A stretch of DNA of 64,000 nucleotides from an uncultured cyanobacterium (GCA_963744145.1 CAVUSO010000001.1:1806831-1870830); one strand, 5' to 3'; positions 7,385 to 61,449 are shown, counted from the stretch's first letter. The notes: generated from the letters alone by a model not told the origin. A program made the numbers and translations.

Positions 7385-7400
7385 TAACGCCAATTTTATT

Positions 7401-31849: not shown

Positions 31850-31997
31850 AATTTTAATCTTATTGCCGCTGATGTTAACTATAGCTTGAATAAATTATGA
31901 ACGATAGTGGTGCAGAAACTTCTAGTTTGGTAGAATTATTAGATGCTCTTGGGTTTCCGATCGCGATCGCACCTACTAATGAAAAACCGATCTGATC

Positions 31998-43439: not shown

Positions 43440-45233
43440 TCATTTTATCTTGTTCACAAAATTATTTATTTCGTAGTACATTTTTACTCTCTGAATTGAA
43501 TCAATATAAAACTCAGATTCAGGAATACCTAAATACAGCCTCTTAAAGACTCGATTCCGGTAATAAGCATGGACTTTATTCACCATCTCATTGCCCAAAT
43601 ATTCAACAGCACTATTGGGAGATTTGAAATTAGTGAAATAAAGGACATCACTATCGTTCTCATTGCTAATACCGATTTGAACAACTCTACTCTCATAGAA
43701 AAGAGGAAGTGCTCTAGCAGGTAATCTCGAAGTTAAATATGCTTGTACATCCAGGCGATCGAGATCGGCAGGATAAAAAGTAGGATAGACTTCTACCGCC
43801 GCTTTATTGTTAAAGAAAAAGTCAAACCCTACTAATAAAGTCCCATTGATAATTAATTTCTCCCAGTCTCGCTTTTCTCCGCAAAGTGCGATGGCAATTG
43901 CTATCTTTTCTGGATAATCCCTGATGCTAAGAAATAACTTTATTCGTGAACGTTTTAGTTCTGGACGAACATCGACACCGACAGACACCATATCTACTTT
44001 ATGAGGGTCTATACCTGTAGCTAAAAACTGCTGAAGTAAACTGCGATCAAGCTGAATTTCTGGACTTCCTTCTATCAAACGAGAGAAAGAGAGGAAATCT
44101 TCAATATCAAGCAATTTCACTACTGGATCGGGAACACCAACTTCAGAGAGATAAGTAAAACGAGCTGGATAAAAACAATCTTTTTCAATATTGCAGCAAC
44201 AGGCAATACAACCTCCTTGATCTTTTCTCTGCTTACCGATAAATTCTGCAAATAAATTTAATGGATAAGAATTTTCAATATTAAAAACTTGTTTGTGTTC
44301 TTCAAAATAACGCAAATTTTCTTCATGGCGATTCAATCCGAAACTGGACTTCACACCAGAAAAATGCTTTTGGGGTTCAACTTTTATTCTGGCAGGTTTG
44401 ACCGCTTTAATATCAGCAAAAAATAAGGGTAAATTGGGGTGAAGGAAATTTGCAGAAGCTAGACGTAGAGCTAGTGATGGCATCTTAACTGTTTGGTTTT
44501 CATCATATTCAATAGATTGGAAACCAGCCTCATGAACAAGCTCAACTAAGTTCTTAAGAGGAATAACATGGCTGTTTTGGAGTTCTTGCTGGTTGATTTC
44601 ATCCATTGCTTTTTGCTCTAGTGGAGAAAGGGGTGGCTCTTTAACAAAGAGACCCGTAATATATAGAGTTCCCCCCGGATTTAGCACGCGTCTGGCTTCA
44701 GCAAGGACTTGGGATACCCGATTAGAATACTTGATGCTGTCGTTGAAAAACACTACATCAAATACTTCATTGGGAAAAGGTGGGAAATGAAAATCACCTA
44801 CTTGGACCCGCACCCGATCAACCAAGTTAGCTTGGGCAATCCGAATTTGGGCTTCTGCCGCTTCCACCTCAGAAATTGTTAGACCCTCAATCCGGGTTCC
44901 TGGAAACAACTGAGCAATATGAATCGCCGGAATTCCTGCTCCACAACCAGCATCAAATATATAGTTTCCGGGCTTTATCCCCATGCGATCTGCTAGACTA
45001 AGGTTGTGTGATCTAGCTACTGCATCAGGAACCATCCGACTAAAGTTGATGGAGTGCTTATTATAAAAAGTGCGAACTTCTTCGACTTCGGGCGTAGGGT
45101 TAGGTTGAATAGGAGCACTTGGACTGATGTAGTTATTTTGCATGATGTTCGATAGGGATAACTGGCGGAAAGAAAAGTCTGGATGACTTGATGGTGAGCT
45201 TAAGTGCATCTTCAACAGTAAAGACAAGACCAA
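43440..45233 (-). CDS. Class I SAM-dependent methyltransferase fused to a C-terminal domain occupying the PatF (cyanobactin prenyltransferase family) position; putative bifunctional MT-PT
   Basis: MTase motif I IFDAGCGAGIPAIHIA, post-I acidic residue, motif II/III region. ~350-aa C-terminal domain of PatF-like size immediately downstream of the precursor gene. The PT call is positional/inferential. Confidence 0.5.
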   Translation of the reverse strand: MVLSLLLKMHLSSPSSHPDFSFRQLSLSNIMQNNYISPSAPIQPNPTPEVEEVRTFYNKHSINFSRMVPDAVARSHNLSLADRMGIKPGNYIFDAGCGAGIPAIHIAQLFPGTRIEGLTISEVEAAEAQIRIAQANLVDRVRVQVGDFHFPPFPNEVFDVVFFNDSIKYSNRVSQVLAEARRVLNPGGTLYITGLFVKEPPLSPLEQKAMDEINQQELQNSHVIPLKNLVELVHEAGFQSIEYDENQTVKMPSLALRLASANFLHPNLPLFFADIKAVKPARIKVEPQKHFSGVKSSFGLNRHEENLRYFEEHKQVFNIENSYPLNLFAEFIGKQRKDQGGCIACCCNIEKDCFYPARFTYLSEVGVPDPVVKLLDIEDFLSFSRLIEGSPEIQLDRSLLQQFLATGIDPHKVDMVSVGVDVRPELKRSRIKLFLSIRDYPEKIAIAIALCGEKRDWEKLIINGTLLVGFDFFFNNKAAVEVYPTFYPADLDRLDVQAYLTSRLPARALPLFYESRVVQIGISNENDSDVLYFTNFKSPNSAVEYLGNEMVNKVHAYYRNRVFKRLYLGIPESEFYIDSIQRVKMYYEINNFVNKIK

Positions 45234-45403
45234 AGAAGGAACATAGGACTTTAAAAAAGTTTTTTATCTAAGCCTCCTTGGCCTTGTCTGTAGTCTCAAG
45301 CCTATCAACGTTTAATCCCGATATTTAGGGCAGTAAACTGCAATTTTACCGGATTTGGAAGGCTTAAGATGCAATTTGCTGGCCATTCGCAAATTGGAAG
45401 AAT

Positions 45404-45646
45404 TTAGGCATCACCATCGAAGGAACAGATGCATATGATAGCTGCATCTACACCATCGAAGGAACAAATGGTTGGAACGAAAGCTGCATCTACACCATCG
45501 AAGGAACAGATGCATATCATAGCTGCATCTACACCAGCACCACCGAGAGCTTCCTCAGATAGTTCAGCCAAGTGGCTGGGGAGTTGACCATTGGTAATGC
45601 GGAGTACGGGTTTGGCTTGTTGGGGCAGGATATTTTTCTTATTCAT
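45404..45646 (-). CDS. patE: Cyanobactin precursor peptide (PatE-like), 80 aa: conserved leader + three core cassettes
   Basis: Leader MNKKNILPQQAKPVLRITNGQLPSHLAELSEEALGGA is PatE-like. The rest is GVDAA-MICIC-SFDG-VDAA-FVPTIC-SFDG-VDAA-IICIC-SFDGDA. The DNA shows three cassette repeats at 45420-45540. The track ORF (to 45745) has a spurious N-terminal extension. Confidence 0.8.
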   Translation of the reverse strand: MNKKNILPQQAKPVLRITNGQLPSHLAELSEEALGGAGVDAAMICICSFDGVDAAFVPTICSFDGVDAAIICICSFDGDA

Positions 45647-45780
45647 GGAACTAATCCTTATTTTGTTGCTTGGTTTGTTGACCCGTTTAGGTGGGTTAAT
45701 CCTCTCCTTCATTGAGAAGAAGGCTGATGAAGCAACATCTGGCACGTAGAGAAGCCCGTTGCCTGCAAACTTTAAAAGAC

Positions 45781-48129
45781 TTAGAATGGTATATTCATAG
45801 GATTCATTTCTGCCTCAGCCAGGGGTAAAATTTGCCACCCTAACTGCACCGGAACATCATAAAGCCGCCCGGGAGCAAACCGCGACCATAAACCTCTCAT
45901 TCCGGGTATAATCACTTTGACGACATTCAAGCCAATGTCCGGTCGCGTTTGGTCTAATACCAAAGTTTCTAGCCCTACTGTTTGAGCTATCCCTACACAA
46001 GTCATCACATCTGTATAGATATCATCACTCCAACGTTTCGGGTAATCATTGGCAGTCTTCATCGGCTGTGTTTGATCGGGAAGTAGACAAGGATGACTAG
46101 ATCGAGTCACTTCTAAAAACCAGTCTTTCGACTCATCTTTGAGTTGCTCGTCAGGAATTTTGTCAAGTTCCAGTCCAACCTGACTCACCTCAGTCAAACT
46201 GCGAAGAATAGCAATCTTCGGGTCTAGATGCGCCCCAAAACCGACGATCACCCGCTCTGAACTTCCTACTGTGCGATACGATATACCCGCAAACGCCGGA
46301 ATTCCCAGGTCAGCAGTTAAATCCAGCACCCAAAGTTCTCGGTTCCGCTCCTGGTAGAACTGCTGCAACTGGAGAAAATAAGGCTCATCAAAGCTGCTGA
46401 GATCCACCCCTGGACGTCTAAGGCGGTTGTACCACCACAGGGCTACGCTATCACGCTCCACCAGTTCCATAAACCCTTGCAATATTGCCTCTTCAAGGGT
46501 ATTGCCCGCCGCGTTACCGTTGGAATCTGCCTTACAGAAACGATTGGTTTCTGGGATGGGATAGTGGTAGTAGCAAAAGGCAGTGGGAAGGTATTTGTGT
46601 GTCTGTGCAGTCAATGACCATACTGGTGTCCAGTCAATGGCTTGACTGGCATCAAACCGATGGGGAATCCAGCGATAGGCTGCTTCTGTCCCTTGAGCGT
46701 TTAGGGCTTCTCGATTAGCATACTGCCCATCGCTAAAGTACAAACACTGCTCCGGATGAATTGCCAAGTCTCCTAGTTCTGCTAGAGTTGCCCGTTTACG
46801 GGGTTCATCTCCCTGAAAGATCCCTGAATAGCGTTCCACTGCCTCACATAACCCACTTGCCCGCGATTGGCTATCGGTTTTGCCCTTGCCCGAACTCTTG
46901 TGGCGGAGGGTATTACGTAGTCCCCGCAGGGATATAGCACTACCAAAACTATGCCCTGCCCGGTAAGTATGAACCAATTGGTTGGCTGGATCGGTGATTC
47001 GCACTAGTTCTGTCACTACCCCTGTAATCGGGCTGATCAGGTGTTGGTATTTCTGAACAGTCTGTTCCGGGGTAACAGCGCGGTGACCACCATCAGCCGT
47101 GAAGTGCTTGGGGCGCGATTCTAGCTGTAGCGGTTCAAATCCCCGTCGTTGCAGGATACCTGAGTCGCCACAGGTCGGACATTGAGGTCGCTTAATCAAG
47201 ATATGACTTTTCAAGTCCAGAATCGTCTGGTTAAAGGTGATAATCTTGCCGTCTAGGGTAGGGAAGAGCGCAGTTCCTGGTGCAGTTTTATTGGCATAGT
47301 GCTTGACAATCCACTTGGCAATTTCAGTTGCTGCAAACTGTAACCCCGTTTGTAAGGTTGAAGGTAGTGTTGCCCGTGCTGTGGGGAGGCAACCTACCAC
47401 CCGCACTTTTTGGCCATTGCGCTCTTGTTGGGCTTGTTTTTGCCGCAAGACCGACGACTCAACTTCTCGATTGCCCCGCAATCGCTGGGCAAGACAGTCC
47501 CAACACCCCGTCTTTCCAGGAACAAACACCGGACCTAACCAGAGAACACTGCCCACTGGCTTGATTAGTAGCCAAGCTTGTTGGTGTTGCAGAGCCTGTT
47601 GGTTAATTGCCCCTAGTTCGGGCTGTAAATAATCATCAGTCAAAACTATGTTAATTACTGCGGAGGAACCCGCATCTGTGGGTTTTTGTACCGCAATACC
47701 CATCTCCTGCAACGCATTGGTGAGAGCAGTAGCAGTTACTTCATTGATGTTCTCCCCCACTGTTGTCAGCGTGACCGGCTGATGTAGTCCCTGTGCTGCA
47801 ACAGCGGGTGAAATCCCTAACTCGCTCCAAAATGCCGCCACTTCTGGGGATAAAATCGGGGCAGCCTCGGTGAGGTATCCCTTCTCTGCCAGGCGATTGA
47901 GCACATAGTCAATATATTCTGGTGGAACTTCCCCATCCAGCTTTTCGACAATCTGCATCTGGGTATATTGCCCATCCAACAGAGGCAATATTTGGCAGTA
48001 GAGTTGCCCTGTGAGGACATAGTTAGCCTGTTCGCCAAGTAGATAAACTTGCTTTGGCTCAATGATCTCGACATGAAAGTGGGGCTTAATTTGCAGCAGT
48101 GTGGTAGATTGCATGGAGCGAACAGTCAT
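45781..48129 (-). CDS. patD: PatD-like cyanobactin heterocyclase (E1-like docking domain + YcaO cyclodehydratase), 782 aa
   Basis: Size and domain order as PatD/TruD. Cys-x-x-Cys pairs (CWDC, CPTC) in the N-terminal zinc-tetrathiolate region. YcaO-type C-terminal domain. Located directly upstream of the precursor. Confidence 0.8.
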   Translation of the reverse strand: MTVRSMQSTTLLQIKPHFHVEIIEPKQVYLLGEQANYVLTGQLYCQILPLLDGQYTQMQIVEKLDGEVPPEYIDYVLNRLAEKGYLTEAAPILSPEVAAFWSELGISPAVAAQGLHQPVTLTTVGENINEVTATALTNALQEMGIAVQKPTDAGSSAVINIVLTDDYLQPELGAINQQALQHQQAWLLIKPVGSVLWLGPVFVPGKTGCWDCLAQRLRGNREVESSVLRQKQAQQERNGQKVRVVGCLPTARATLPSTLQTGLQFAATEIAKWIVKHYANKTAPGTALFPTLDGKIITFNQTILDLKSHILIKRPQCPTCGDSGILQRRGFEPLQLESRPKHFTADGGHRAVTPEQTVQKYQHLISPITGVVTELVRITDPANQLVHTYRAGHSFGSAISLRGLRNTLRHKSSGKGKTDSQSRASGLCEAVERYSGIFQGDEPRKRATLAELGDLAIHPEQCLYFSDGQYANREALNAQGTEAAYRWIPHRFDASQAIDWTPVWSLTAQTHKYLPTAFCYYHYPIPETNRFCKADSNGNAAGNTLEEAILQGFMELVERDSVALWWYNRLRRPGVDLSSFDEPYFLQLQQFYQERNRELWVLDLTADLGIPAFAGISYRTVGSSERVIVGFGAHLDPKIAILRSLTEVSQVGLELDKIPDEQLKDESKDWFLEVTRSSHPCLLPDQTQPMKTANDYPKRWSDDIYTDVMTCVGIAQTVGLETLVLDQTRPDIGLNVVKVIIPGMRGLWSRFAPGRLYDVPVQLGWQILPLAEAEMNPMNIPF

Positions 48130-48163
48130 TGATTAAGTGGACAAAAACCAAACATCCCATTAA

Positions 48164-48763
48164 TTAAGCCCAGATGCGACCCCGTCGGAAGTCCTTGGGC
48201 TGCTGTTCAGGGGTTTTGGCAGATCTTTTGGCATAATCCCACCAATAGGAATAATCTTGCAGCCCGGTCTGGGAAGTGGGCACATAAGACTTTTTCGGTT
48301 CAGGGGTTGAGGAGACTTCCGAGGTTGTTGGTGTTGGTGTTGGTGTTTTCTTAGCCATCGTTTTTTTAGTTTCCTTGGGTGTTTCGGGTGTTTGGGAGGT
48401 TGGCGGTAGCTGGAGATTAACCACTCCCTCTAGCTTGAGGTAGTCGATCCGGTGTACTCCATCTCCCGACCCTTTAACAGTGGTCAGGGTTAGGGTATGT
48501 TGCCCAGCACTGAGGGCTGGTAAGGGAATCTGGGTTTGGGTTGGCTTGCCTGACCCGACGCCGACCAGTTCGGTTACTAGTTCACCATCAACCCAGAGGG
48601 TGTCAACTTCAGAGCCAAAAAAGTTATAAAAGAGTGTAAGTTCGCCTGTACTGTAACTTTGGGTTAGGGTGAATTGAATATTTAGTTTGTCGGTGGAAAA
48701 AAGCTGTTTTCCTTTGTGCTGTGGTTTCTTCTTGCGACCTGGAACCAAGAGCAACGATGGCAT
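48164..48763 (-). CDS. Hypothetical protein (199 aa) in the PatC position of the cluster, Thr/Pro-rich linker
   Basis: Positional only. TPETPKETKKTMAKKTPTPTPTTSEVSSTPEPKK low-complexity segment. Confidence 0.35.
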   Translation of the reverse strand: MPSLLLVPGRKKKPQHKGKQLFSTDKLNIQFTLTQSYSTGELTLFYNFFGSEVDTLWVDGELVTELVGVGSGKPTQTQIPLPALSAGQHTLTLTTVKGSGDGVHRIDYLKLEGVVNLQLPPTSQTPETPKETKKTMAKKTPTPTPTTSEVSSTPEPKKSYVPTSQTGLQDYSYWWDYAKRSAKTPEQQPKDFRRGRIWA

Positions 48764-48939
48764 ATGTGGATGGTTAATGGGTTCTGGATCTGACCCAACA
48801 ATGTAGGTAAATTCCTTTTGCCAGCCACCTACCTGCGAAAACTCTTGCCCTCCTTTACCAGGATGACCAATTTGCCATAGAGTTTCAGTTTGCTGAGGTA
48901 TGGTGATGAGCGACTTATCAGTGGCTCTTTAGTGGCTTA

Positions 48940-49191
48940 TTAATAAAATCCTCCCATACCCGCAAAGCCGCCCCAGCCCTGGCTGGATGTACTCTGGCTA
49001 GTACTAGAGTGCATCACCTGGTTGAAACTGCGGTTGGCAAAGGCTGGAGGATCGTTATAGTTAGCGGCATGGAGTAGATCCATCCGAATACCTACCAAAT
49101 CATCAGGACTACCATTTTCCACATCCACACACAACGCTGGTTGGATGAAATGGGGACGTTTAACGGGAGGAGACAATATAGGAAGTCGCAT
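48940..49191 (-). CDS. Hypothetical small protein (83 aa) in the PatB position
   Basis: Positional only. Confidence 0.3.
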   Translation of the reverse strand: MRLPILSPPVKRPHFIQPALCVDVENGSPDDLVGIRMDLLHAANYNDPPAFANRSFNQVMHSSTSQSTSSQGWGGFAGMGGFY

Positions 49192-49296
49192 GGTTGAGGA
49201 TTCTCCGTATGAATATTATGGATAGGATCAACAAACTTAGATGTCTGGACGAGAGTGCATTTGGTTTTTGCACTCTCATGCAAATTGTATTTCCTT

Positions 49297-51249
49297 TTAA
49301 TACGGTGAAGACCAGCTGCGAACTTCGCCCAAGGTAACTGGAATCAAATCGCTCACATCAATGGTGAAGCGGAAAATCTTCTTGGCGCGGCGGTTGTTTT
49401 CCGGGTCGAAGAACTTCAGTTTCACATCCCAACAGTCGCTATCCACACGACAGAAAGGACTCTTCTCCACGGTGATGCTGTCAAGTTCCATGCCCACTGC
49501 TACCGCTTGACTGAAGGTTTGTGCGGCTTGGAAAGCGTTGGTAACTGCGAAGTTGAGAGCGCGATCTTGAGATGTGGTTCCCAAGTTGCGGAGGTCGTAG
49601 TAGATGCGGTTGAGGAAACCATCCAAAGTCCTGCGAATCGTTTCTTCGTCAGCATCCCCAGTTTCCGCTTGAACTGCTGCCAATGCCGCACTCACCAGGT
49701 TGTTGACTTTCCATCCATAGATACCGCGGGTACTTTGGGGTTCAATGACTGGAACAATTTGACCGGAGTAGAGCTTGACCGTGCGTTTGGTTAATATACC
49801 TGGTATGCTGACGCGCTCAACGTATTCGGTATTAGATTCAGGTTGGATTTGACCTGATAGCAGTTCGTGAAGGGCTCGGTAGGATTCAGCACCGAAGGGA
49901 CCTGTGGGGTCGATCGCGTATACTGGAGTTAATTCAATGTTGAGTGTCCAAATTAGCGATCGCGCCTCCGAAATATTATCGTTCAGGTAGTCCACCATCT
50001 GGCGAGCATCGTAGGGGTTAGCCGGGACCATCACCCCTCCCCCCAAGTCAAACGGTGGCATCAGTTGCTTAAATGAGTCCCTCCGGGCTTCAGTTCCGAA
50101 GTCATAGCCGAGGGTGCCCAGGGAATAGACCAGCTGACCGAGATCGGCAAGTTCGCTGGGGGCTTGGCTGGCGGTGACAGAGTTAGCAGTGAAGTTGGGC
50201 ATCGTTGGTGGTTGGGTGATAGGGTTAGGAAAGGATTGAATCAATTCTTGCAAGTTGGGGGTGTTGCTGGGGACAGCTCCAACCGCTCCGGGCGTGGCAG
50301 CGATCGCTTCACTGGTGTTGGTTAAGCCACCAGTACAACCGCAACCTCCCGCTTCTACTGATGAGGCATCTACTGATGCAAATTCCTCAGCCATTTTTCC
50401 TCCTTTTAATAACGTTATGGCACCAGGGATGTTTAGTTTGCCTGCCAGACACCGTTTAGTGTCTGGCAAGTCTGGGTCGTCGCAGGGTAAGGCACTCTGC
50501 AACAAAATTTGCCGAATTTTGTGGGAGTCTGGGGTTTCTCCCTCCTCCTGCTGCATACTCAGCAAGACCGCTGCTACACCTGAAACGATAGGAGTAGCGA
50601 AGCTCGTACCACTCAGGCGCTGGGTGCCGCCCCCAGGTTTAGCCCCCAGGATATCCTCCCCTGGGGCAAGAATACCTTGTTCTTGGTAGGTTTCGCCCCA
50701 GTTGCTAAAATCCAGGGGTTTACCATTAGCATCCATAGCTCCCACCGCTAGTACATCGGGCAAGGCAGCGGGCACATGTAAGCAATCACAACCATTGTTG
50801 CCAGCGGCAGCGACCAGCAAAACATTGTTCTTTTGGCACAAACGAATGGCATTCTGAAGCCAGCCATCGGATTCGCCAAAATCAGTCAGTTGACCCCCAC
50901 TGATGTTGATCACATGGGCTCCAGCATTGATCGCTTGCTCTATTCCTCGCGCCAAATCTAGCTGAGAGGTCTTGCGCCGATCGTCGGCAAAAACCGGTAC
51001 AATTATTCCCTTACATTGGGGCGCAATCCCCTGGACTGGACTCCCCGGTTGCCCAAATATAATGCTGGCAACGTGGGTTCCGTGGGTGGACATACTGCCA
51101 TCGCTCTTTGCTTTTTCTTGCACCAATGTGGGTAGATACTTAATGTCTGCGCCTTGGAAGCAAGCATGAGTCTGATCGACAGGACCATCCAAAACTGCTA
51201 TACAAATACTGCTATCTCCCTGAGAGATGCTACGCAATTTATCTAGCAT
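49297..51249 (-). CDS. patA: PatA-like cyanobactin N-terminal protease: subtilisin (S8) domain + C-terminal PatA/G DUF
   Basis: ICIAVLDGPVDQTHACF (Asp), STHGTHVASIIFG (His), AAAGNNG (oxyanion Asn), LSGTSFATPIVSG (Ser). C-terminal domain homologous to the PatG-like C-terminus. Confidence 0.85.
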   Translation of the reverse strand: MLDKLRSISQGDSSICIAVLDGPVDQTHACFQGADIKYLPTLVQEKAKSDGSMSTHGTHVASIIFGQPGSPVQGIAPQCKGIIVPVFADDRRKTSQLDLARGIEQAINAGAHVINISGGQLTDFGESDGWLQNAIRLCQKNNVLLVAAAGNNGCDCLHVPAALPDVLAVGAMDANGKPLDFSNWGETYQEQGILAPGEDILGAKPGGGTQRLSGTSFATPIVSGVAAVLLSMQQEEGETPDSHKIRQILLQSALPCDDPDLPDTKRCLAGKLNIPGAITLLKGGKMAEEFASVDASSVEAGGCGCTGGLTNTSEAIAATPGAVGAVPSNTPNLQELIQSFPNPITQPPTMPNFTANSVTASQAPSELADLGQLVYSLGTLGYDFGTEARRDSFKQLMPPFDLGGGVMVPANPYDARQMVDYLNDNISEARSLIWTLNIELTPVYAIDPTGPFGAESYRALHELLSGQIQPESNTEYVERVSIPGILTKRTVKLYSGQIVPVIEPQSTRGIYGWKVNNLVSAALAAVQAETGDADEETIRRTLDGFLNRIYYDLRNLGTTSQDRALNFAVTNAFQAAQTFSQAVAVGMELDSITVEKSPFCRVDSDCWDVKLKFFDPENNRRAKKIFRFTIDVSDLIPVTLGEVRSWSSPY

Positions 51250-51590
51250 TTAAAAATGTTTATTCCCAAAATTAATAAATATAATCGCATACTTGTTCAG
51301 ATGAGCAACCTGGTAGTGATTGGGCATGACTCTCCTTTAAGTTAACTAGCTATTAAGTTTTTTGGCCAGTTGTTGTTTATAATACAAAGCGATAAAATTA
51401 TTTAAGCATACTAAATTGCTTATCGTACCAGGGAATAAAAAAAAATACAAAACTTTACAATTAACATCTGGTTGACTTTGATCACCAAATAGGTTATTAA
51501 AAATATCTTCCTTCAACTCCAATCTGAGTTTGGGATCATCCATATTACCCATAGAGACCTATTGTTCTTACGCCCCTACTAAAAGTTATC

Positions 51591-51840
51591 CTTGATAATA
51601 TTGGATAAATCGAGCGGGAATTTCTGGAGATATTCCCCAATGGAGATGAATATAGGAAGCGTATAATTGATATATTTGCCATCCTTCATATTCAATGACA
51701 CTTTGACGAGAATAACCCCCTGTTTTTAACAGAGGACTTGCTGAATTTTCACTTAAATGCGATCGATGAAATTCATGCCCAAATGCCCAAAAATATTTGT
51801 TCCTTGCTAATTATTATTTCTTCAGATCAAATCATGGCGA
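51591..51840 (-). repeat. Displaced ~250-bp copy of the 3' end of cobB (last ~80 codons) abutting the stop of the hybrid kinase gene
   Basis: Reverse complement encodes ...GYSRQSVIEYEGWQIYQLYASYIHLHWGISPEIPARFIQY.., matching the cobB C-terminus at 60064-60300. Confidence 0.75.
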
Positions 51841-54015
51841 TCGCATCATCGGTTCCAGGAATTTAAGAATACCAGCATCATCAAAATTATCGACAAAATT
51901 AATTAAACGAGTAGCAAAAGATTTATACTCAGAATTCAACTGCTCTAACCGATAAGCTTCATTTATTACTAGATCCATATCACCAATTCTACTAGCTTGA
52001 TAGATCTGCTCAAGTTCAACTACCGGTGGAAATATTACTTCTGGCTGGTTTACTACTTCTATTTCTTCATAATTCCACGTAATTTGTAAATACTTTGCTA
52101 AGAGATTAAATAAATATTGGGCATTAACTGGTTTAGCTAAAAAGCCATCAGCACCAGCATCGAAACTCATTTGTTGATCTACTTTTGCTACTGAAGCTGA
52201 GGAAACTACTACTTTTAGATGTTTGAAATTTTCATCATTTCTTAATTGTTTAATAAAATCAAAACCATCCATTACCGGCATAGCTAGGTCTGTAATTATT
52301 AAATCTGGTAAGTTCTCTCTGATTTTTTCTAAACCAACCTTTCCATTTTCTGCCTCACTAAGTATAAAGCCAATGGGTTCTAATAGACTTACAAGTACCG
52401 CTCTATTTGCCCAGCGATCGTCTATGATTAATATATGTTTTTGATCTCCATTATAACTAATAATATTACCAGCTCTATTAGAGTTAGTAATATTACTCGT
52501 CTGATCTAGTGCCGATTCGACATTGAGCGGTAATGCTAATTTAAAAAAGAATTTACTTCCTACTCCTAATTTACTCTCTATTTTAATCTGTCCGCCCATT
52601 AATTGTACTATTTGCTGACTAATGGCTAATCCTAATCCGGTTCCTTCAGTTTGACGAGAATGATCGCCTACTTGTTGAAAAGCTTGGAATAATTTATTGA
52701 TATTTTCTTCACTAATCCCGACTCCAGTATCGATCACAGAAAAATTTAGGGAAATAAAGGAATTTCGATCAATATTTGAGTTTAATCGTTCAATTTTTAG
52801 GGTAACACTACCTTGATCAGTAAATTTAATCGCATTACCTAAGAGATTAATTAATACCTGTCGTAATCGTTTCTCATCAGCAATAACCCCTTGAGGTAAA
52901 TTAGCATCTGGAGTATAATAAAAATCAAGTTTTTTTTGTTTAGCGCGGATTTGGGCGATTTCCACAACACTTTGCACTAACGCTGGTAAATTCACAGCAC
53001 TCGGTGCTAGTTCAAGTTTACGAGCTTCTATTTTGGAGATATCTAGAACGTCATTGATTAGATCTAGTAAATGAGAACCACACTGATGGATAACGTTAAT
53101 TCCATTTTTTTCGTTATTGGGAATAGCTTTAGAACGTCCTAGAATTTGGGTATAACCTAAGATTCCATTTAGAGGTGTTCTTAATTCGTGGCTCATGTTA
53201 GCGAGGAATTCACTTTTAGCTTTATTAGCATTATCCGCTAATTGTTTAGCAAGTTCTGCTTCTTCTTTAGATTTTTTCAGTGCGCTAGTGCGTTCTTCTA
53301 TTCGTTCTTCTAGTTCATTATTAGCTTGGGATAAGAGCTTAAATGCGTCATCAACTTGAATAGTTTTTAAATTTAATTTTTTTCCGAGGTCTAAGAGTAA
53401 ATATGCCACCAATACAGCGATAATTATAATTACCATAACTCCTAAATTTATTAAGCTAATAAACCACTGTGTTTCATCATTACTGAATCTCAACAAATTT
53501 TTCTCAAATTCAGCTAATTCGTTATTTATTTTCTCGAATTCTCCCAAGTTACTTTTTGATTCCTTCAGATATAAATCTATTGCTTCTTTTAGCTTACCTT
53601 CTTCTCTCAAGCGAAAAGTTTTGTCGGCAAGGTTTTCATATTCATTCTCTAGTTGTATCATTTTAACAATTTTTTCTTTTTCTTGAAAATCAGGATCTTC
53701 TTCTACCAGACTTTTTAAGTTTTCTTTAGCTTTTAAATAATTACCTCTTTCTCTTTCATAGGTTCGTATAGCACCCTCAGCATTACCCACAAGTAGATAA
53801 CCACGAACTTGCCTAGCCATCAAAGCTACTCTCAAAAGCATATTATTTGCTTCCAGAACAGTATCTTGAGTTATTCTTGCTTTCTTATAAACTTGACCTA
53901 AGTGAATAACACTTAGATATACTATCCCGCTAAACATTATCAATACTATAAATAAGATCGCTGGCAGCAAAGAACTAGGGATGAAGTATTTTTGGAAGTT
54001 ATTTTTTTCAACCAT
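51832..54015 (-). CDS. Hybrid sensor histidine kinase with CHASE3-like periplasmic domain, HisKA, HATPase_c and C-terminal receiver
   Basis: TM-flanked sensor, coiled coil, H-box SEFLANMSHELRTPLNGILGYTQIL, G-boxes, REC HILIIDDRWANRAVL...DLAMPVMDG. Confidence 0.8.
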   Translation of the reverse strand: MVEKNNFQKYFIPSSLLPAILFIVLIMFSGIVYLSVIHLGQVYKKARITQDTVLEANNMLLRVALMARQVRGYLLVGNAEGAIRTYERERGNYLKAKENLKSLVEEDPDFQEKEKIVKMIQLENEYENLADKTFRLREEGKLKEAIDLYLKESKSNLGEFEKINNELAEFEKNLLRFSNDETQWFISLINLGVMVIIIIAVLVAYLLLDLGKKLNLKTIQVDDAFKLLSQANNELEERIEERTSALKKSKEEAELAKQLADNANKAKSEFLANMSHELRTPLNGILGYTQILGRSKAIPNNEKNGINVIHQCGSHLLDLINDVLDISKIEARKLELAPSAVNLPALVQSVVEIAQIRAKQKKLDFYYTPDANLPQGVIADEKRLRQVLINLLGNAIKFTDQGSVTLKIERLNSNIDRNSFISLNFSVIDTGVGISEENINKLFQAFQQVGDHSRQTEGTGLGLAISQQIVQLMGGQIKIESKLGVGSKFFFKLALPLNVESALDQTSNITNSNRAGNIISYNGDQKHILIIDDRWANRAVLVSLLEPIGFILSEAENGKVGLEKIRENLPDLIITDLAMPVMDGFDFIKQLRNDENFKHLKVVVSSASVAKVDQQMSFDAGADGFLAKPVNAQYLFNLLAKYLQITWNYEEIEVVNQPEVIFPPVVELEQIYQASRIGDMDLVINEAYRLEQLNSEYKSFATRLINFVDNFDDAGILKFLEPMMRSP

Positions 54016-54310
54016 AATAATTATAGCTCTATTAGGAAGATAAATGCAAAGTTAACTATCGCTTCGATCGCTTGCTCAAAAAAGCCAACCACATCACATT
54101 ATTGACGATGACAAGTTCTGGAGTAAACACTCTTTTCGCAACTTTAACATATTACCTTAATTTTTAATTCATATTTCGCACATTTTTAGGTTTCATTACA
54201 TATTTTAATCTTATGGCGAAAATGGCATAAACTTAAACTAACCTTAAATTCTTTTACGCGCCATCATGGTATCAAAGGTTAGAGTTAAGAGTTTTTAACC
54301 CAGCAAATCC

Positions 54311-54430
54311 GTGACAATATTGGATAAATCGAGCGGGAATTTCTGGAGATATTCCCCAATGTAGATGAATATAGCAAGCGTGTAACTAATATATTTGTCA
54401 TCCTTCATATTCAATGACACTTTGACGAGA
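54311..54430 (-). repeat. Degenerate ~120-bp copy of the cobB 3' end (contains an in-frame stop)
   Basis: ttggataaatcgagcgggaatttctggagatattccccaatgtagatgaatatagcaagcgtgtaactaatatatttgtcatccttcatattcaatgacactttgacgagaataac aligned to 60071-60190. Confidence 0.7.
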
Positions 54431-54580
54431 ATAACTATTCCACTCCAATTACATTTACCCACTAAATTTAGTTTAGTAATTGGTATAAGTCTTCACCCAG
54501 AAGGGAAAACAGCACTGTTGCACATTAGTCAATTACAGCTTGAAATACGGGTTCAGTTTCCTAGAGATCCTGTGTCATAC

Positions 54581-56281
54581 CTAAGTGGTAAATCTTTGGT
54601 CAATATACTCCCCACCTTGAATAGCCAACCCCAACTCCAAAAGCTTTTCTAAAGCGATCGCTTGAGCCTGATGTATTTGACTATAGCTAAACAGAGCGGG
54701 AATCTCGGCAGGTAATAGAGGGACTAATTCTTGCCAAATGTATGGGCTACCGTAGAGGATCAGCGCTTGTAATTGTCCCGCATTTAGTAAGGACTCTAAC
54801 CAGAGCCGCGCTAGATCGATCAAACCCCTCGTATTCTGAAAGGGGTTAGCCTGGATAAACAGTTGCAGTAACGTGGGCTGAAGATCTTTGATAGATTCGA
54901 TCGCAGGCACTTGACTATCAACCCATTGCCAGCGATAGCCCCATCCTTGCGGTACTCTAATGGCAGGAGCGTGTATTCCTAGAAAACTAGCTTGCAATAA
55001 GTTGTCAACTACAATCAGATTTGTACCTTGCACGTTTGGGTTAGAGCTTGAAGGCGATCGCTGTAGCGGTTGGCGCAAATCGATCGTTGACGGAGCGTGA
55101 ATTGTCAGGGATTGCTCTAGAACGATGCGGCAAAATTCATCGGCTTGAGGTTGGGCTACCCTCTCAAACCAAGGGAGACTAGACTCGTTAACGGCTCGCT
55201 TTTCCTCTGACTTTTCAGTTGAGCGGAAAACCTGCTGTTTAGCTTGCCAAATCCGCTCCAGGGAGGCATAAATTCTTTCCCGACTCAAACGCCCTGTTTG
55301 CACAGCTTCATAAATTGCCTCAATTGTCCCAGGTGGATCAACGGGCATGAGAACGACATCTGCACCAGCCGCCAATGCCATAATGGGAGCTTCTAATGCT
55401 CCATAATGCCGAGTAATCGCTTGCATCACCAGCCCATCGGTCACAATCAACCCGTCAAACCCCATCTCTTGGCGCAATAACTTAGTCAACACTAAAGATG
55501 AGAGAGTAGCAGGATAATCTGGGTCTAAAGCAGGTACTTGTAGGTGTGCAGTCATCACCGAACTTACCCCTGCCGCAATTGCCGCTCGAAAAGGAGCTAA
55601 TTCTACCTGGTCTAGACGTTCTCGTGAATGAGGAATCAGTGGTAAGTCCAGGTGGGGATCGGTGGCAGTGTCCCCATGTCCCGGAAAGTGTTTAGCCGTT
55701 GTCAAAACCCTGTAGTCTTGGGTGCCTTGGATAAACGCCTCAATTAAAGGAATGACAATTTCTGGTGTTTCTCCAAAAGCTCGCAAACTAATTGCCGGAT
55801 TTTCCGGGTTATTATTCACATCAACAATAGGAGCCAGCAGCCAGTTGAGACCAACAGCTTGAGCTTCCTGAGCGCTAATAGCTCCCATCACTCTTGCATA
55901 CTGGCAAGCTTGGGTCAAATCAGATTGAGCGATCGCACCCAGAGCCATTGCTGGGGGCATCCAGGTAGCACCGGAGAACCGTTGACCTACTCCTTGCTCA
56001 ATGTCCGCTGCCATCAGCAGGGGAACTTGCGCCCAGCTTTGCATCTGTTCAATTCGTACAGCTAGTTCAGCGGTGCTTCCTCCCAGGAGAATCACACCCC
56101 CCACCCCCAGATCCTCAATCCAATGTCGTAGTTTGGCTGTAGGCGCTTCCCACTGTGGGTAACGGATTTCGCGATCGAAGAGATGCCCACAGGTCCGCAC
56201 CACTACCAGTTGTGCTACCTGTTGCTTTAGGCTCAATTCCTGCCAGGGAGGTAGGGAACGGTCGTATACGAAGTCACTCAA
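54581..56281 (-). CDS. Glycoside hydrolase family 3 (NagZ/beta-glucosidase-like) protein with C-terminal extension; TTG start inside repeat R1
   Basis: GH3 N-terminal domain blocks GVGGVILLGG, KHFPGHGDTATDPHLDLP, GFDGLIVTDGLVMQAI. Confidence 0.75.
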   Translation of the reverse strand: MSDFVYDRSLPPWQELSLKQQVAQLVVVRTCGHLFDREIRYPQWEAPTAKLRHWIEDLGVGGVILLGGSTAELAVRIEQMQSWAQVPLLMAADIEQGVGQRFSGATWMPPAMALGAIAQSDLTQACQYARVMGAISAQEAQAVGLNWLLAPIVDVNNNPENPAISLRAFGETPEIVIPLIEAFIQGTQDYRVLTTAKHFPGHGDTATDPHLDLPLIPHSRERLDQVELAPFRAAIAAGVSSVMTAHLQVPALDPDYPATLSSLVLTKLLRQEMGFDGLIVTDGLVMQAITRHYGALEAPIMALAAGADVVLMPVDPPGTIEAIYEAVQTGRLSRERIYASLERIWQAKQQVFRSTEKSEEKRAVNESSLPWFERVAQPQADEFCRIVLEQSLTIHAPSTIDLRQPLQRSPSSSNPNVQGTNLIVVDNLLQASFLGIHAPAIRVPQGWGYRWQWVDSQVPAIESIKDLQPTLLQLFIQANPFQNTRGLIDLARLWLESLLNAGQLQALILYGSPYIWQELVPLLPAEIPALFSYSQIHQAQAIALEKLLELGLAIQGGEYIDQRFTT

Positions 56282-56639
56282 CTGTCTTTTACCGAAATTA
56301 CAATTTTGCCATTATTCCCTATTATTGTAGGCTAAGTTGAGAGAGATTCCTCGAAAATCTATTTAATATGTCCCTCGCGATCGCAAAGAAGGACTCTCAA
56401 TTTTTGGCGATCGGGCTTTCTGCGCTCAAACGAAAAACCTAACCCCCTAACCCCCTTCCCTAGGAGGGAATGGGGAGTAAGAGAATTATTGAGCGCGTTT
56501 TCTTCGCTGCAAAGAGCATTTTTATGATACAATGGAAAAATAGATCTAAGAATTCTTGCTTCCCTTTCCTTTTAGTAGGGGGGCTGGGGGAGAGGTCAAT
56601 ATCCGCGATCGCTACATAACTATTCTTACCCCCCTTTCC

Positions 56640-57668
56640 TCATCCTTGACAATATTGGATAAATCGAGTAGGAATTTCTGGAGATATTCCCCAATGGAGA
56701 TGAATATAGGAAGCGTGCAATTGATATATTTGCCATCCTTCATATTCAATGATACCTTGACGAGAATAGCTCCTTGTTTTTAACAGAGGACTTGCTGAAT
56801 TTTCACTTAAATGCGATCGATGAAATTCGTGCCCAAAAATATTTGTTCCTTTCGATAATAATGGACTATCTTGTAAAGCAACTGCTTGTCGATAACCTAA
56901 GATCAAGCGAGAACTCATTACGGCTATAGTTGGTAATATTCCCACCATTTCCCAAGATTTACCGTTAAAGTCTACTATAGCTTGACACAAATACATTAAA
57001 CCACCACATTCAGCATAAGTAGGAATCCCATTAGCGATCGCTGATTTAATTGCATCACATCCAGCTCGATTAGCAGATAACTGCTCTGCAAAAACTTCGG
57101 GAAAACCCCCACCAAAGTATAATCCTTGTACTCCCTCTGGTAAAGCTGAATCGGTGAGGGGACTCCAAAATACTAATTCAGCTCCAAGCTGTTCTAATAA
57201 ATCTAAATTATCTTGATAATAAAAACTAAAAGCTCGATCGCGCGCGATCGCAATCCTTACTTTAATTGGTGATGTGAATTTTACTGCTACCGACGGTCTA
57301 CTCACTACATTTTTGAGCAAAGGTAAAAGCAGTTCCCAATTAAAACACTCCTTACCTAGATGAGCAATTTTATCAATAATAGTTTCTAAATTTAGCATTT
57401 CTGCCACAGGAACTAAACCCAAATGGCGATCGGGAATAGTAATCTGATCCTGTCGTCGAATTACACCTAAAATTGGTAACTGTAAAGACTCTAAAGCATC
57501 ACTGAGTAATTCCAAATGCCGATCGCTACCAACCCGATTCAGAATCACCCCAGCTAACTTAATCCGCGCATCAAAAAAACGATAACCAAACGCGATCGCA
57601 GCTACCGATCCAGACAAATGACTACAATCGATCGCCAAAACCACAGGTAAATTCAACAATCGAAACAT
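56640..57668 (-). pseudogene. Truncated paralogous copy of cobB (lacks ~120 N-terminal codons incl. the P-loop); part of a 1.4-kb segmental duplication
   Basis: ~97% nt identity to 60064-61085. Translation MFRLLNLPVVLAIDCSHLSGSVAAIAFGYRFF... equals CobB residues ~120-461. Confidence 0.7.
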
Positions 57669-57718
57669 TTCTTGTAACTAGATAACAGAGCCAATATTTG
57701 GATCTAAAAAATCAGTAA

Positions 57719-58795
57719 TCATAGATCGTCACATGGGCCAATTCCTGCTGAATCAGTGCCAGCCGTGCCGACGATTTCATCTAACGCCGCCCCCAACTGC
57801 TCAATACTTGGCAAAACATCCCGCAACCCCTCTGGAAGCTCCTGTTGGTATCGAGCAACCGCGATAGGTTTATTCACATCTCGTAAAGCATACTCCACAA
57901 TGGTTTGATTGCGAGACTTGCACAAAATCAGCCCGATCGTCGGTTGATCATTCGAGCGACATAGTAAATTATCCGCCACCGACACATAAAAACTCATCTT
58001 GCCCGAATACTCCGGCTTAAACTCTCCCATCTTGAGGTCAATTACCACATAGCAATGCAACCACAAATGGTAAAACAGCAAATCCAAATAAAAATCCTCA
58101 CCGCCCACTTCTAAATGGTACTGACTGCCCACAAAGGCAAACCCCACTCCAAGCTCTAATAAAAAATCCCGAATTCTTTCCAATAAAGCCTTCTCTAAAT
58201 CCCGTTCCTTCGCTTCTGCTCCCAAACTAAGAAAATCAAAAGTGTACGGATCTTTGAGTAGTTGATTGGCTAAATCTGATTGGGGCTTGGGTAACGTTGC
58301 CTCAAAATTTGTGATCGCCTTGCCCTGCCGCTGGTACAGTTTCGTCTCAATTTGATGCTCCAAAACCGCCCGACTCCAGCCATAGGCGATCGTTTGTTGG
58401 ATGTACCATATCCTTTCCTCTGGTTGTTTTACCTTGTCCAGCAAGATGCAGTTATGGAACCAAGGAATTTGTGCAGCAAGTTGCTGCACAATTAACTCAT
58501 CCCCCCATGACTCAGCAAAAGCCCTCATGTACTTGAGGTTGCGAGATGAGAACCCTTTCAGATCGGGGAACTCATGCTTTAAGTCTTTAGCTAGGCGTTC
58601 GATCACCTTGGAACCCCAGCCCTCCTGCTCCTGCTGTGTCAGAATTTCCCGCCCAATTTGCCAGTAGAGCAACACCAACTCTCGATTAACGGCTAGAGAC
58701 GCCCGAACCTGCACTGATCGGATTTGCTCCTTGATGTCAGCTAGCAACGCCCCGTAACCTTCCGGCACCATTTCAGAGGTCCTATCCAAAGTCAC
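57719..58795 (-). CDS. PDDEXK-nuclease-domain protein of the DUF1016 / YhcG family; GTG start inside repeat R1'
   Basis: N-terminal wHTH-like region plus C-terminal nuclease-like core (…DLLFYHLWLHCYVVIDLKMGEFKPEYSGKMSFYV…), typical of DUF1016. Confidence 0.65.
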   Translation of the reverse strand: MTLDRTSEMVPEGYGALLADIKEQIRSVQVRASLAVNRELVLLYWQIGREILTQQEQEGWGSKVIERLAKDLKHEFPDLKGFSSRNLKYMRAFAESWGDELIVQQLAAQIPWFHNCILLDKVKQPEERIWYIQQTIAYGWSRAVLEHQIETKLYQRQGKAITNFEATLPKPQSDLANQLLKDPYTFDFLSLGAEAKERDLEKALLERIRDFLLELGVGFAFVGSQYHLEVGGEDFYLDLLFYHLWLHCYVVIDLKMGEFKPEYSGKMSFYVSVADNLLCRSNDQPTIGLILCKSRNQTIVEYALRDVNKPIAVARYQQELPEGLRDVLPSIEQLGAALDEIVGTAGTDSAGIGPCDDL

Positions 58796-59064
58796 TCAAC
58801 TGTTTACCGAAATTACAATTTTGCCATTATTCCCTATTATTGTAGGCTAAGTTGAGATCGATTCCTCGACAATCTGGTTCTTTTAAACTAGAGAGCGTTA
58901 TCCACAATTGATTTGGCAAGATTTAGCGGATTCCAAGTTAATGAAGTACAGTCAGTTCTCTCGTTTGGTTGGGCAGGTTTATGAGTGGGACAGGCAAGAT
59001 GCCTGTCCGTAATCTGTTTGGAGCAGAATTGATTGGTGAACTGGCCCAACCAAATCCTGGTTGA

Positions 59065-59514
59065 TTGTCAATTGAATATGAGTCTATCTTTATGCAACTA
59101 CTTGAGCAAATCAATGAAAAGACAAGTAGTGGATATATTAAAGGCTTTTTATTCAGCAACAATATTACAGAAACTGAATTATTAGCTTGGTTAAAACGCC
59201 ATAGTACAAAATGGGAAGAAACCCCAGAACAATATGAAAAATTAGGACAAAAATTGATAAATATTAGCAAAGTTGCTAGGAGAGAATTGACAATATTTGC
59301 TGGAGAAGTTGGCCAGAAATTAGTTAAATCTCCTAATGAGAATCCTCCAGAAAATATTTTAGATGATGCAGAAGAATGGTTCAACAAAGGTAATAAACTA
59401 TATGATCAAGGTGATTTTCTAGGTGCGATCGCCGCCTACGACCACGCGATCGCCATTAAACCCGACTTTTACGAAGCTTGGAATAACAAGAGCTTGGCGC
59501 TGAATTACTTATAA
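59065..59514 (+). CDS. Hypothetical protein ending in a single TPR unit; probably a gene fragment within a ~900-bp insertion
   Basis: AEEWFNKGNKLYDQGDFLGAIAAYDHAIAIKPDFYEAWNNKSLAL is a TPR repeat cut by the stop. Confidence 0.3.
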   Translation: MSIEYESIFMQLLEQINEKTSSGYIKGFLFSNNITETELLAWLKRHSTKWEETPEQYEKLGQKLINISKVARRELTIFAGEVGQKLVKSPNENPPENILDDAEEWFNKGNKLYDQGDFLGAIAAYDHAIAIKPDFYEAWNNKSLALNYL

Positions 59515-60063
59515 TCCGAATTATGTTTTGCTAATCCCTACTTTTGGAGTGCATACATTCTGATCGGATTATAATACAATATGGTTCAGTTAACGATGTT
59601 TTGGGAGATCTCGGCTTTAGAAGGGTGAAGATGTTTTGGGAGATATCGATTCAGAACTGGATGAAGATGTTTTGGGAGATCTCGGCTTTAGAAGGGTGAA
59701 GCATTCGGATATAATATTCCTAGTTTGATTGTTCAATTGTCGCCCGAATGCTTCACCCCTACAATTAACTGAACCTGATTGGATGATAATATGTCCTTCG
59801 CGATCGCAACGAAGGAATATCAATTTCTAGCGATCGGGTTTTCTGCGCTCATAAGAAAGACCTAACCCCCCAACCCCCTTCCCTAAGAGGGAATGGGGAG
59901 TAAGAGAATTATTGAGCGCGTTTTCTTCGCTGCAAAGAGAATTTTTATGATACAATAGAAAAAATAGATATAAGAATTCTTGCTCCCCTTTCCTCTTAGG
60001 AGAGGGGTTGGGGGAGAGGTCAATCAACCCGATCGCTCCATCACCATTCTTACCCCCCTTTCC

Positions 60064-61449
60064 TCATCCTTGACAAAATTGGATAAATCGAGTAGGAATT
60101 TCTGGAGATATTCCCCAATGGAGATGAATATAGGAAGCGTGTAACTGATATATTTGCCATCCTTCATATTCAATGATACCTTGACGAGAATAACTCCTTG
60201 TTTTTAACAGAGGACTTGCTGCATTTTCAGTTAAATGCGATCGATGAAATTCATGCCCAAAAATATTTGTTCCTTTCGATAATAATGGACTATCTTGTAA
60301 AGCAACTGCTTGTCGATAACCTAAGATCAAGCGAGAACTCATTACGGCTATAGTTGGTAATATCCCCACCATTTCCCAAGATTTACCATTAAAGTCTACT
60401 ATAGCTTGACACAAATACATTAAACCACCACATTCAGCATAAGTAGGAATCCCATTAGCGATCGCTGATTTAATTGCATCACATCCAGGACGATTAGCAG
60501 ATAACTGCTCTGCAAAAACTTCGGGAAAACCCCCACCAAAGTATAATCCTTGTACTCCCTCTGGTAAAGCTGAATCGGTGAGGGGACTCCAAAATACTAA
60601 TTCAGCTCCAAGCTGTTCTAATAAATCTAAATTATCTTGATAATAAAAACTAAAAGCTCGATCGCGCGCGATCGCAATCCTTACTTTAACTGGTGATGTG
60701 AATTTTACTGCTACCGACGGTCTACTCACTACATTTTTGAGCAAAGGTAAAAGCAGTTCCCAATTAAAACACTCCTTACCTAGATGAGCAATTTTATCAA
60801 TAATAGTTTCTAAATTTAGCATTTCTGCCACAGGAACTAAACCCAAATGGCGATCGGGAATAGTAATCTGATCCTGTCGTCGAATTACACCTAAAATTGG
60901 TAACTGTAAAGACTCTAAAGCATCACTGAGTAATTCCAAATGCCGATCGCTACCAACCCGATTCAGAATCACCCCAGCTAACTTAATCCGCGCATCAAAA
61001 AAACGATAACCAAACGCGATCGCAGCTACCGATCCAGACAACCGACTACAATCGATCGTCAAAACCACAGGTAAATTTAATAATCGAGCTACATGAGCTG
61101 TACTCGCAAAATCAGCAGCACCAGGATTCTGCTCTCTATCATCAGGGGAGTTAACTAAATTAGTTTCTACCCCATCAAACAAACCCATCACCCCTTCCAC
61201 CAAAGCCAATTCTACCTGAGAACTATGCAGAGCAAAACATTCCTGTACATAACTCTCAGAAGTCAAAATCGGGTCTAAATTGCGACAAGGACGACCAGTA
61301 ACATAATGATGAAACATCGGGTCAATATAATCCGGACCAACCTTAAACGATTGTACCGACATCCCCCGACGCTGTAAACAAGATAAAAGGGCGAGAGTAA
61401 TCGTTGTTTTTCCCGCCCCACTGCGATCGCCAGCAATTACAATTGCCAT
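60064..61449 (-). CDS. cobB: Cobyrinic acid a,c-diamide synthase
   Basis: MAIVIAGDRSGAGKTTITLALLSCLQRRG (P-loop), ...FKVGPDYIDP..., C-terminal glutamine amidotransferase-like domain with GGFPE. Confidence 0.85.
   Translation of the reverse strand: MAIVIAGDRSGAGKTTITLALLSCLQRRGMSVQSFKVGPDYIDPMFHHYVTGRPCRNLDPILTSESYVQECFALHSSQVELALVEGVMGLFDGVETNLVNSPDDREQNPGAADFASTAHVARLLNLPVVLTIDCSRLSGSVAAIAFGYRFFDARIKLAGVILNRVGSDRHLELLSDALESLQLPILGVIRRQDQITIPDRHLGLVPVAEMLNLETIIDKIAHLGKECFNWELLLPLLKNVVSRPSVAVKFTSPVKVRIAIARDRAFSFYYQDNLDLLEQLGAELVFWSPLTDSALPEGVQGLYFGGGFPEVFAEQLSANRPGCDAIKSAIANGIPTYAECGGLMYLCQAIVDFNGKSWEMVGILPTIAVMSSRLILGYRQAVALQDSPLLSKGTNIFGHEFHRSHLTENAASPLLKTRSYSRQGIIEYEGWQIYQLHASYIHLHWGISPEIPTRFIQFCQG

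Follow-up and report, generated by a model that had tools for sequence, protein, structure and literature searches.

Four co-oriented copies of the cobB 3' end at a putative gene-gain hotspot in an uncultured cyanobacterium

A stretch of 64,000 nucleotides (nt) from the 7.63-Mb genome of an uncultured cyanobacterium (GCA_963744145.1, CAVUSO010000001.1:1806831-1870830; hereafter, the window) carries the cobB/cbiA gene for cobyrinate a,c-diamide synthase together with three further copies of its 3' end. The intact gene (60064-61449, minus strand) encodes 461 amino acids (aa) with the Pfam domains CbiA and GATase_3, and the best CobB orthologues are 65-70% identical to its product. The copies were designated A (the last 1021 nt of the intact gene), B, C and D; all four are on the minus strand and in the same orientation. 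We place about even weight on the reading that the region 3' of cobB is a gene-gain hotspot, built up by at least three successive additive recombination events that were not driven by an integrase.

A self-BLAST of the window matched 59787-61087 (A) to 56364-57663 (B) with 96.5% identity over 1301 bp, 51588-51805 (D) to 60066-60275 (A) with 91% over 218 bp, and 54307-54436 (C) to 60066-60195 (A) with 92% over 130 bp; C and D were 94% identical to each other. A 26-mer that is invariant across the copies occurred four times in the window and not once in 100 shuffles. Searches of the window with nhmmer and tblastn found exactly four cobB-tail copies, all of them at the cobB locus; a dispersed cobB-tail repeat was thus not seen in the 64 kb. 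The 26-mer had no exact match in the GTDB representative genomes or the JGI metagenomes, collections that do not contain the source genome. Pfam searches assigned the genes 5' of the fragments to a DUF1016/YhcG nuclease (57719-58771), a GH3 hydrolase (54581-56281) and a CHASE3 hybrid kinase (51832-54015). Pfam scans, which covered the array genes and all open reading frames (ORFs) of at least 150 aa in the window, detected no integrase or integrase remnant. The sequence-only reading of this DNA had described four such copies, a distinct gene 5' of each fragment and the lack of an integrase, and all three descriptions held. Its coordinates were close to those found here, except that copy B extends past the cobB stop codon and copy D covers ~220-250 bp at 51565-51814 instead of 51591-51840. 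Every pair of copies is parted by 1.1-2.5 kb of unrelated DNA, without the direct head-to-tail abutment of a simple tandem duplication.

The copy nearest to the intact gene belongs to a larger duplicated unit. Copy B (56640-57663, minus strand) retains codons 122-461 of cobB in an open frame, with a partial CbiA and a full GATase_3 domain, and the repeat of which it is part (56364-57663) runs 277 nt beyond the cobB stop codon. The native DNA downstream of cobB in unit A (ds_A, 59787-60063, minus strand) matches 56364-56639 at ~90%, and the second copy at that place (ds_B, minus strand) differs from it by 24 substitutions and 3 indels in the 277 nt. A small HIP1 hairpin and a palindromic dispersed element of ~210 nt (59828-60038) are found in ds_A. 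The element, whose predicted RNA fold has an energy of −105 kcal/mol (z −4.9), matches itself on the opposite strand and recurs in ds_B (56406-56617), so that it lies just 3' of cobB in both units. Partial copies are present at 7397-7529, between convergent recQ-like and trpA genes, where a 50-nt stretch (7398-7447) is 100% identical to 59976-60025. At its 5' edge, copy B shows 5 differences in 45 nt.

A further repeat of ~100 bp, R2, extends the unit on its other side. R2_A (58778-58875, minus strand) is 91% identical to 56260-56360 and is left over from the 5' portion of the foreign GH3 segment, namely upstream DNA and the first seven codons, now with an in-frame stop. It is homologous to the DNA upstream of GH3 in the fetched loci L011-L013 and forms the 3' end of unit A. 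R2 abuts ds_B directly in unit B, and it lies 911 bp away from ds_A in unit A. The A/B repeat is therefore composed of 1301 bp plus the ~100 bp of R2. It starts at cobB codon 122, takes in a non-coding stretch of 277 nt and ends at GH3 codon 7.

The intervening 911-bp segment (58876-59786) is present in unit A only, and unit B has just AAT at this point. It contains a truncated ORF for a TPR protein on the plus strand (59065-59514, with TPR Pfam matches), 36-nt tandem repeats (59595-59701) and an inverted repeat similar to those of miniature inverted-repeat transposable elements (59568-59593 and 59765-59790). Because the segment lies within 3 nt of the point where the native downstream DNA meets the left end of the GH3 segment, this junction has been used twice. 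The segment resembles a tandem array at 2952-5115. That region of the window (2952-5199) is non-coding and holds ~7 units of 300-332 bp (79-96% matches), every one of them with an inverted repeat inside it, GGGCAAAGCATTCCGG / CCGGAATGCTTTGCCC; a related piece is present at 59669-59762.

Between the two units lies the DUF1016 insert (57664-58777, minus strand), made up of a coding sequence for a YhcG-type PDDEXK nuclease and a 55-nt tail. It shows 81% nucleotide identity to three Logan contigs (L008-L010, SRR254754xx), and the homology covers exactly 58777-57719, starting at codon 3 of the donor gene. This start is one base after the end of R2_A, so that GH3 codon 7 is joined to DUF1016 codon 3 and the left junction lies inside two coding sequences. 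The insert is an internal fragment of a foreign operon. In the three contigs, the DUF1016 gene has a Uma2 gene on one side and hsdS on the other and belongs to type I restriction-modification operons, in which PIN and YoeB/Phd toxin-antitoxin genes are present as well. The stop of DUF1016 and the start of hsdS overlap there as ATGA, and the same ATGA is kept at the DUF1016 stop in the window. The 55-nt tail is not the hsdS start of L008 and had no plasmid match. DUF1016 homologues are common on cyanobacterial plasmids, and the plasmid search gave only distant matches to the insert.

The foreign GH3 segment (54581-56360, minus strand) consists of the coding sequence (54581-56281) and ~80 nt of upstream DNA, its first 100 nt being R2_B. 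It is 87% identical at the nucleotide level to loci L011-L014, and the homology runs exactly from 56360, the left edge of R2, to the stop codon at 54581. A native adjacency of cobB and GH3 was rejected, since the GH3 relatives sit in loci unrelated to cobB and R2 is the exact point at which the homology begins. From the GH3 stop codon, a linker of 144 nt (54437-54580, minus strand) leads to copy C; it had no similarity to other DNA in the window or in the fetched loci.

Copy C (54307-54436, minus strand) is a pseudogene fragment of the last 130 nt of cobB, which ends within the stop codon and contains two in-frame stops. It is followed by the hybrid histidine-kinase cassette (51815-54306, minus strand), which comprises 290 nt of upstream DNA, the coding sequence (51832-54015; Pfam CHASE3, HisKA, HATPase_c and Response_reg) and ~20 nt of downstream DNA. 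The closest relative of this kinase among the GTDB representatives was only 58% identical, over part of the protein, and its plasmid matches were at the level of domains. Copy D (51565-51814, minus strand) retains approximately the last 220 nt of cobB and ~20 nt of the original downstream DNA. It carries an 8-bp duplication that shifts the frame, and the TAA stop is kept. Past the stop, D shares ~20 nt with A and B and diverges where the palindromic element begins.

The composition of the cargo genes was compared with that of their surroundings. The G+C content at third codon positions (GC3) was 0.24-0.32 in the native genes of the window, 0.44 in GH3, 0.53 in DUF1016 and 0.23 in the kinase gene. 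In addition, the best homologues of GH3 and DUF1016 were 82-87% identical, compared with 70% for the best CobB orthologue. These results fit a horizontal acquisition of GH3 and DUF1016. In three relatives, the nearest available, cobB is followed by other genes, psb28 in two loci and a glycosyltransferase gene in one, and no cobB fragment was found in any of them; this comparison, which the sequence-only reading had proposed, fits serial additions. The window itself contains no psb28. A strain-level relative was not found in the collections searched, where the closest CobB was 70% identical.

The ends of the copies were then set against each other. On the left, the boundaries correspond to 61087, 60195 and ~60275-60286; on the right, they correspond to GH3 codon 7, the stop codon and a point ~20 nt past the stop, and no junction motif is shared. 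The sequence-only reading had proposed a comparison of the copies to define shared boundaries, as candidates for the core of an attachment (att) site. The copies have no common boundary, which that reading had named in advance as refuting evidence, and the att interpretation is not supported. The repeats, of 130, ~220-250 and 1301 (+101) bp, are also far above the ~40 nt of typical att sites (bioRxiv 10.1101/2020.12.28.424599). What stands of the serial site-specific insertion first proposed is a series of additions beside cobB, each leaving the older 3' end further downstream; integration at an att site does not stand, given the unshared boundaries, the lack of an integrase, the oversized repeats and the junctions within coding sequences.

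The order in which the copies parted from the gene was examined with orthologues as a reference. Two derived residues, S419 and G424, are common to A and B; D keeps the ancestral G419 and S424, and C is ancestral at position 424. It follows that both C and D parted from the working gene earlier. The changes in C and D are mostly non-synonymous, as neutral decay predicts. All of the statistical signals described below rest on few substitutions each. The coding parts of A and B differ at 17 of 1020 nt (9.5 synonymous and 7.5 non-synonymous differences), and the ratio of non-synonymous to synonymous rates (dN/dS) is 0.23. Under neutral decay at the pace of the non-coding flank, B should show ~64 coding differences, against the 17 observed (P = 3e-12). 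In the 3' 423 coding nt, the synonymous divergence (6.5%) equals that of the non-coding DNA outside the palindrome (8.5%; P = 0.64), and the non-synonymous divergence is 1.2% (P = 1e-4). The rate of A/B divergence shifts at the cobB stop codon from 2.4% to 8.5%. Among the private changes that can be polarised, the three in B are all synonymous, and of the four in A only one is. The nucleotide-binding loop is among the 121 N-terminal residues missing from B, which makes direct selection on B unlikely. Judged from these substitution patterns, a history in which A and B had already diverged as working alleles of related strains when they came together would be the better fit. An apparent conflict with a neutral clock, in which C and D differ by less (6.2%) than the non-coding DNA of A and B (8.5-9.7%), was considered as an argument against duplication in situ and was dropped (P = 0.13).

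The signature of purifying selection between A and B is the reason for preferring a series of additive integrations that used the cobB 3' region as their anchor. The geometry of the locus is the one that such integration produces. At all three inserts, which are nested, direct copies of host DNA flank the added DNA, and the downstream copies start at arbitrary points of cobB, namely codon 122, nt 60195 and nt ~60275. In the A/B unit, the host DNA starts within cobB and ends within GH3; it therefore resembles an arbitrary homologous fragment, unlike an att site. The opposite ends are illegitimate, with DUF1016 entering at donor codon 3 against GH3 codon 7, and with the GH3 segment ending at its stop codon.

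As for the recombination route, we infer that incoming DNA would have carried its own cobB 3' region, either because it came from a related strain or because a plasmid or circularised fragment had acquired that region. The incoming cobB tail would have offered homology for recombination at just one end; as the other end had no homologous partner, the DNA would have been added and not swapped in. A circular molecule could have entered by one crossover (Campbell-type), or the incoming DNA could have bridged two chromosome copies, as in transformation-induced merodiploidy. A linear fragment might have achieved the same by homologous pairing at one end and, at the other, an illegitimate joint or an alternative pairing to a second chromosome copy. 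Integration through one-sided homology is documented (PMC3240628), and so is inter-chromatid bridging that gives tandem duplications (PMC3784515). In each event, the incoming cobB end would become the working end, and the resident end would stay downstream as a fragment. The arrival of the kinase cassette may first have displaced D. The cobB-downstream DNA and the foreign GH3 segment would then have arrived and displaced C. Finally, a unit in which the DUF1016 operon fragment had replaced GH3 from codon 8 on may have displaced B.

Several observations weigh against this proposal. A tract of 552 nt in which A and B have a single difference (P = 0.0005) indicates past gene conversion or mosaic recombination and makes inference from a clock less secure. 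R2_A and R2_B each have derived changes of their own relative to the GH3 outgroup, and this fits divergence in situ equally well. The signal of selection consists of 17 differences only, and a half-neutral model is rejected only at P ~0.03-0.04. The kinase cassette is native-like in composition, and none of the relatives found marks its ends. Neither a donor strain nor a circular intermediate was seen in the collections searched, and with the closest available CobB at 70% identity the sister-strain donors are hypothetical. The competence and ploidy of the host, which the route presupposes, are hypothetical as well.

The strongest alternative, which we regard as a possible though distinctly less probable account, is that tandem duplications of a stretch ending near cobB arose in situ three times, by replication template switching or end joining between chromosome copies, each trapping unrelated DNA (DUF1016, GH3 or the kinase), and that later gene conversion kept B similar to A. 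The DUF1016 piece is located exactly where the junction of a tandem duplication is expected, and its blunt ends fall within coding sequences and lack homology. The conversion-like 552-nt tract and the changes private to each R2 copy also agree with it. However, conversion tracts need not stop at a stop codon, yet the divergence of A and B steps up exactly there; the coding differences are biased towards synonymous ones, and the three private changes of B are all of this kind. Furthermore, three independent events of duplication and capture would be needed at one gene end. The local duplication with subsequent gene replacement that the sequence-only reading had offered as a second possibility survives only in this form, as duplication with DNA captured at the junction.

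Tandem duplication has occurred elsewhere in the window, a further point in favour of the in situ account. A Uma2 unit is repeated at 28429-30128 and 30947-32626 (87.6% identity, period 2518 bp), with Uma2 genes at 28488-29351 and 31007-31849. Two adjacent multi-PAS/GAF histidine kinase genes (16682-20209 and 20351-24187), ~70% identical in nucleotide sequence over parts, are paralogous and provide further evidence for local gene duplication in this genome.

A serial integration at the cobB 3' end by integrases that were later deleted with most of their cargo is improbable for the array as a whole; given a complete loss of the element's machinery, it could still apply to the C-kinase-D unit, where both copies end at the stop codon or no more than ~20 nt from it and share 130 bp at 94% identity. 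Co-oriented partial copies of a target that part the cargo, beside an intact target, are the hallmark of tandem island arrays (tycheposons), and the location of the older, degenerate copies away from cobB is also as in such arrays. On the other hand, there is no integrase or remnant among the ORFs of at least 150 aa in the window, and the left boundaries are unshared. The repeats (130 bp to 1.4 kb, against an att site of ~40 nt) take in non-coding DNA and part of the next gene in the A/B case. Junctions lie within coding sequences, each cassette is a single gene or part of one, and the relatives have no cobB fragments.

It is highly unlikely that copy B is a functional paralogue, retained as a stand-alone glutamine-amidotransferase half of CobB with the rest of the array being incidental. 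An ATG at 57668 opens an ORF of 342 aa in copy B with a full GATase_3 domain, and the low dN/dS and the location of most amino acid differences at variable positions would suit such a function. The first 121 residues, with the ATP-binding P-loop, are gone, however, and the ATG comes from linker DNA and has no obvious ribosome-binding site. In a conservation check of the differences between A and B, only R136H was informative, and it affects a residue conserved in 10 of 12 orthologues. This explanation also leaves C and D unaccounted for. The ORF (56640-57668) appears in public protein sets as a separate 342-aa protein, P0001, clustered with full-length CobB, and is likely to be annotated as a second cobyrinate a,c-diamide synthase. 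Most likely, P0001 is a displaced gene tail, hence a risk of mis-annotation.

More speculative still, and very improbable in our judgement, is the notion that the cobB tail and the adjoining hairpin element form a dedicated capture site for single-gene cassettes, used again and again by a so far unrecognised site-directed mechanism that is independent of an integrase. Under it, a further mark of targeting would be that the 911-bp segment re-uses exactly the junction between downstream DNA and GH3. If true, it would represent a cyanobacterial analogue of the integron platform, with the 3' end of a housekeeping gene as the spacer repeat.

Collapsed or mis-joined repeats are scarcely credible as the source of the array. 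Assemblers can be misled by 1.3-kb repeats that are 96.5% identical, but each copy has flanks of its own and the copies are 3.5-9% divergent. In addition, an independent Logan contig (L007, run ERR11571142) that matches 58857-57588 at 100% identity contains the two DUF1016 junctions and the B-specific variants, so that the A/B duplication is not an artefact of assembly.

Several other candidates were rejected. An integron with attC sites was discarded, as no IntI was found among the window ORFs of at least 150 aa and the 130-bp core folds like shuffled sequence on both strands (z −0.15 to 0.40). Rfam gave only sub-threshold chance matches for an RNA gene in the repeat, and the window contains no tRNA or transfer-messenger RNA gene. 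Consensus scans for a terminator or promoter module showed nothing specific to the core.

The array was compared with known systems. It shares with the tandem att-bounded arrays of Prochlorococcus (tycheposons and genomic islands; bioRxiv 10.1101/2020.12.28.424599) the co-oriented copies of a target 3' end between the cargo, the intact target, and the location of newer copies near the target and older, degenerate ones further away. It differs from them in having no integrase that could be found, repeats of 130-1400 bp instead of ~40 nt, no common core or boundary, junctions within coding sequences, and cargo of single genes or fragments. With the integron cassette arrays, such as super-integrons with repeats of ~125 bp, the array has in common its single-gene units, a co-oriented repeat of ~130 bp at ~92% identity, and a DUF1016 unit with almost no upstream DNA; it differs in that no IntI was found, the repeat is a coding tail without hairpin potential (z ~0), and the cassette ends are inconsistent.

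Other resemblances concern recombination between chromosome and incoming DNA. Homology-facilitated illegitimate recombination, in its classical form, usually deletes recipient DNA instead of duplicating it. Campbell-type insertion-duplication and homology-facilitated illegitimate recombination (PMC3240628) resemble the cobB locus in that an arbitrary direct duplication of host DNA flanks the insert, one side is homologous and the other illegitimate, and the ends of foreign genes are truncated. Both are known mainly from laboratory constructs and transformation; the cobB locus would be a natural case, three times at one site. In transformation-induced merodiploidy (Johnston et al. 2013, PMC3784515), a donor fragment bridges two chromosome copies, and a tandem duplication with a donor-specified junction results. 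The pneumococcal duplications measure 100-900 kb and are bounded by repeats derived from insertion sequences (PMC3784515); those at the cobB locus measure 0.13-2.3 kb and have foreign DNA at the junction. The A/B unit also corresponds exactly to a type of evolutionary unit that Tsuru and Kobayashi (2008, PMC2568036) describe for clusters of tandem paralogues, in which an intergenic region is flanked by the 3' part of one ORF and the 5' part of another. The flanking genes at the cobB locus, by contrast, are unrelated to each other and are not tandem paralogues. The cobB array is best classed as an insertion-duplication that has recurred naturally at a gene-gain hotspot; it resembles the att-bounded arrays and is neither of that family nor a new kind of system.

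A complete cyanobactin cluster (39066-51249) begins ~340 nt after copy D. It comprises genes for a PatA-like protease (49297-51249), a YcaO heterocyclase (45781-48129), a methyltransferase and a DUF5838 protein (43440-45233) and a ThcOx/PatG oxidase-protease (39066-42932). The precursor gene (45404-45745, minus strand) encodes a LAELSEEAL leader and three cores, MICIC, FVPTIC and IICIC, each followed by SFDG. The GC3 of the cluster (0.45-0.52), compared with 0.24-0.32 in the native genes, makes it look horizontally acquired. Elsewhere in the window, a gene for an LRR-Roc-COR protein (ROCO-type GTPase) is located at 25125-28157, and its LRR region consists of 13.8 tandem copies of a 69-nt repeat (26974-27925, 89% matches).

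If the preferred reading, serial additive integration at the cobB 3' region, is true, the locus would be a clean natural case of genes being added one by one beside a housekeeping gene without obvious mobile-element machinery, and the old gene tails would be dated markers of each event. It would also mean that arrays similar to those bounded by att sites can come from ordinary homologous and illegitimate recombination, which calls for caution in pipelines that call elements from partial target repeats alone. Because the DNA 3' of cobB, including the cyanobactin cluster, is largely foreign in composition, the region may merit watching as a hotspot in related strains.

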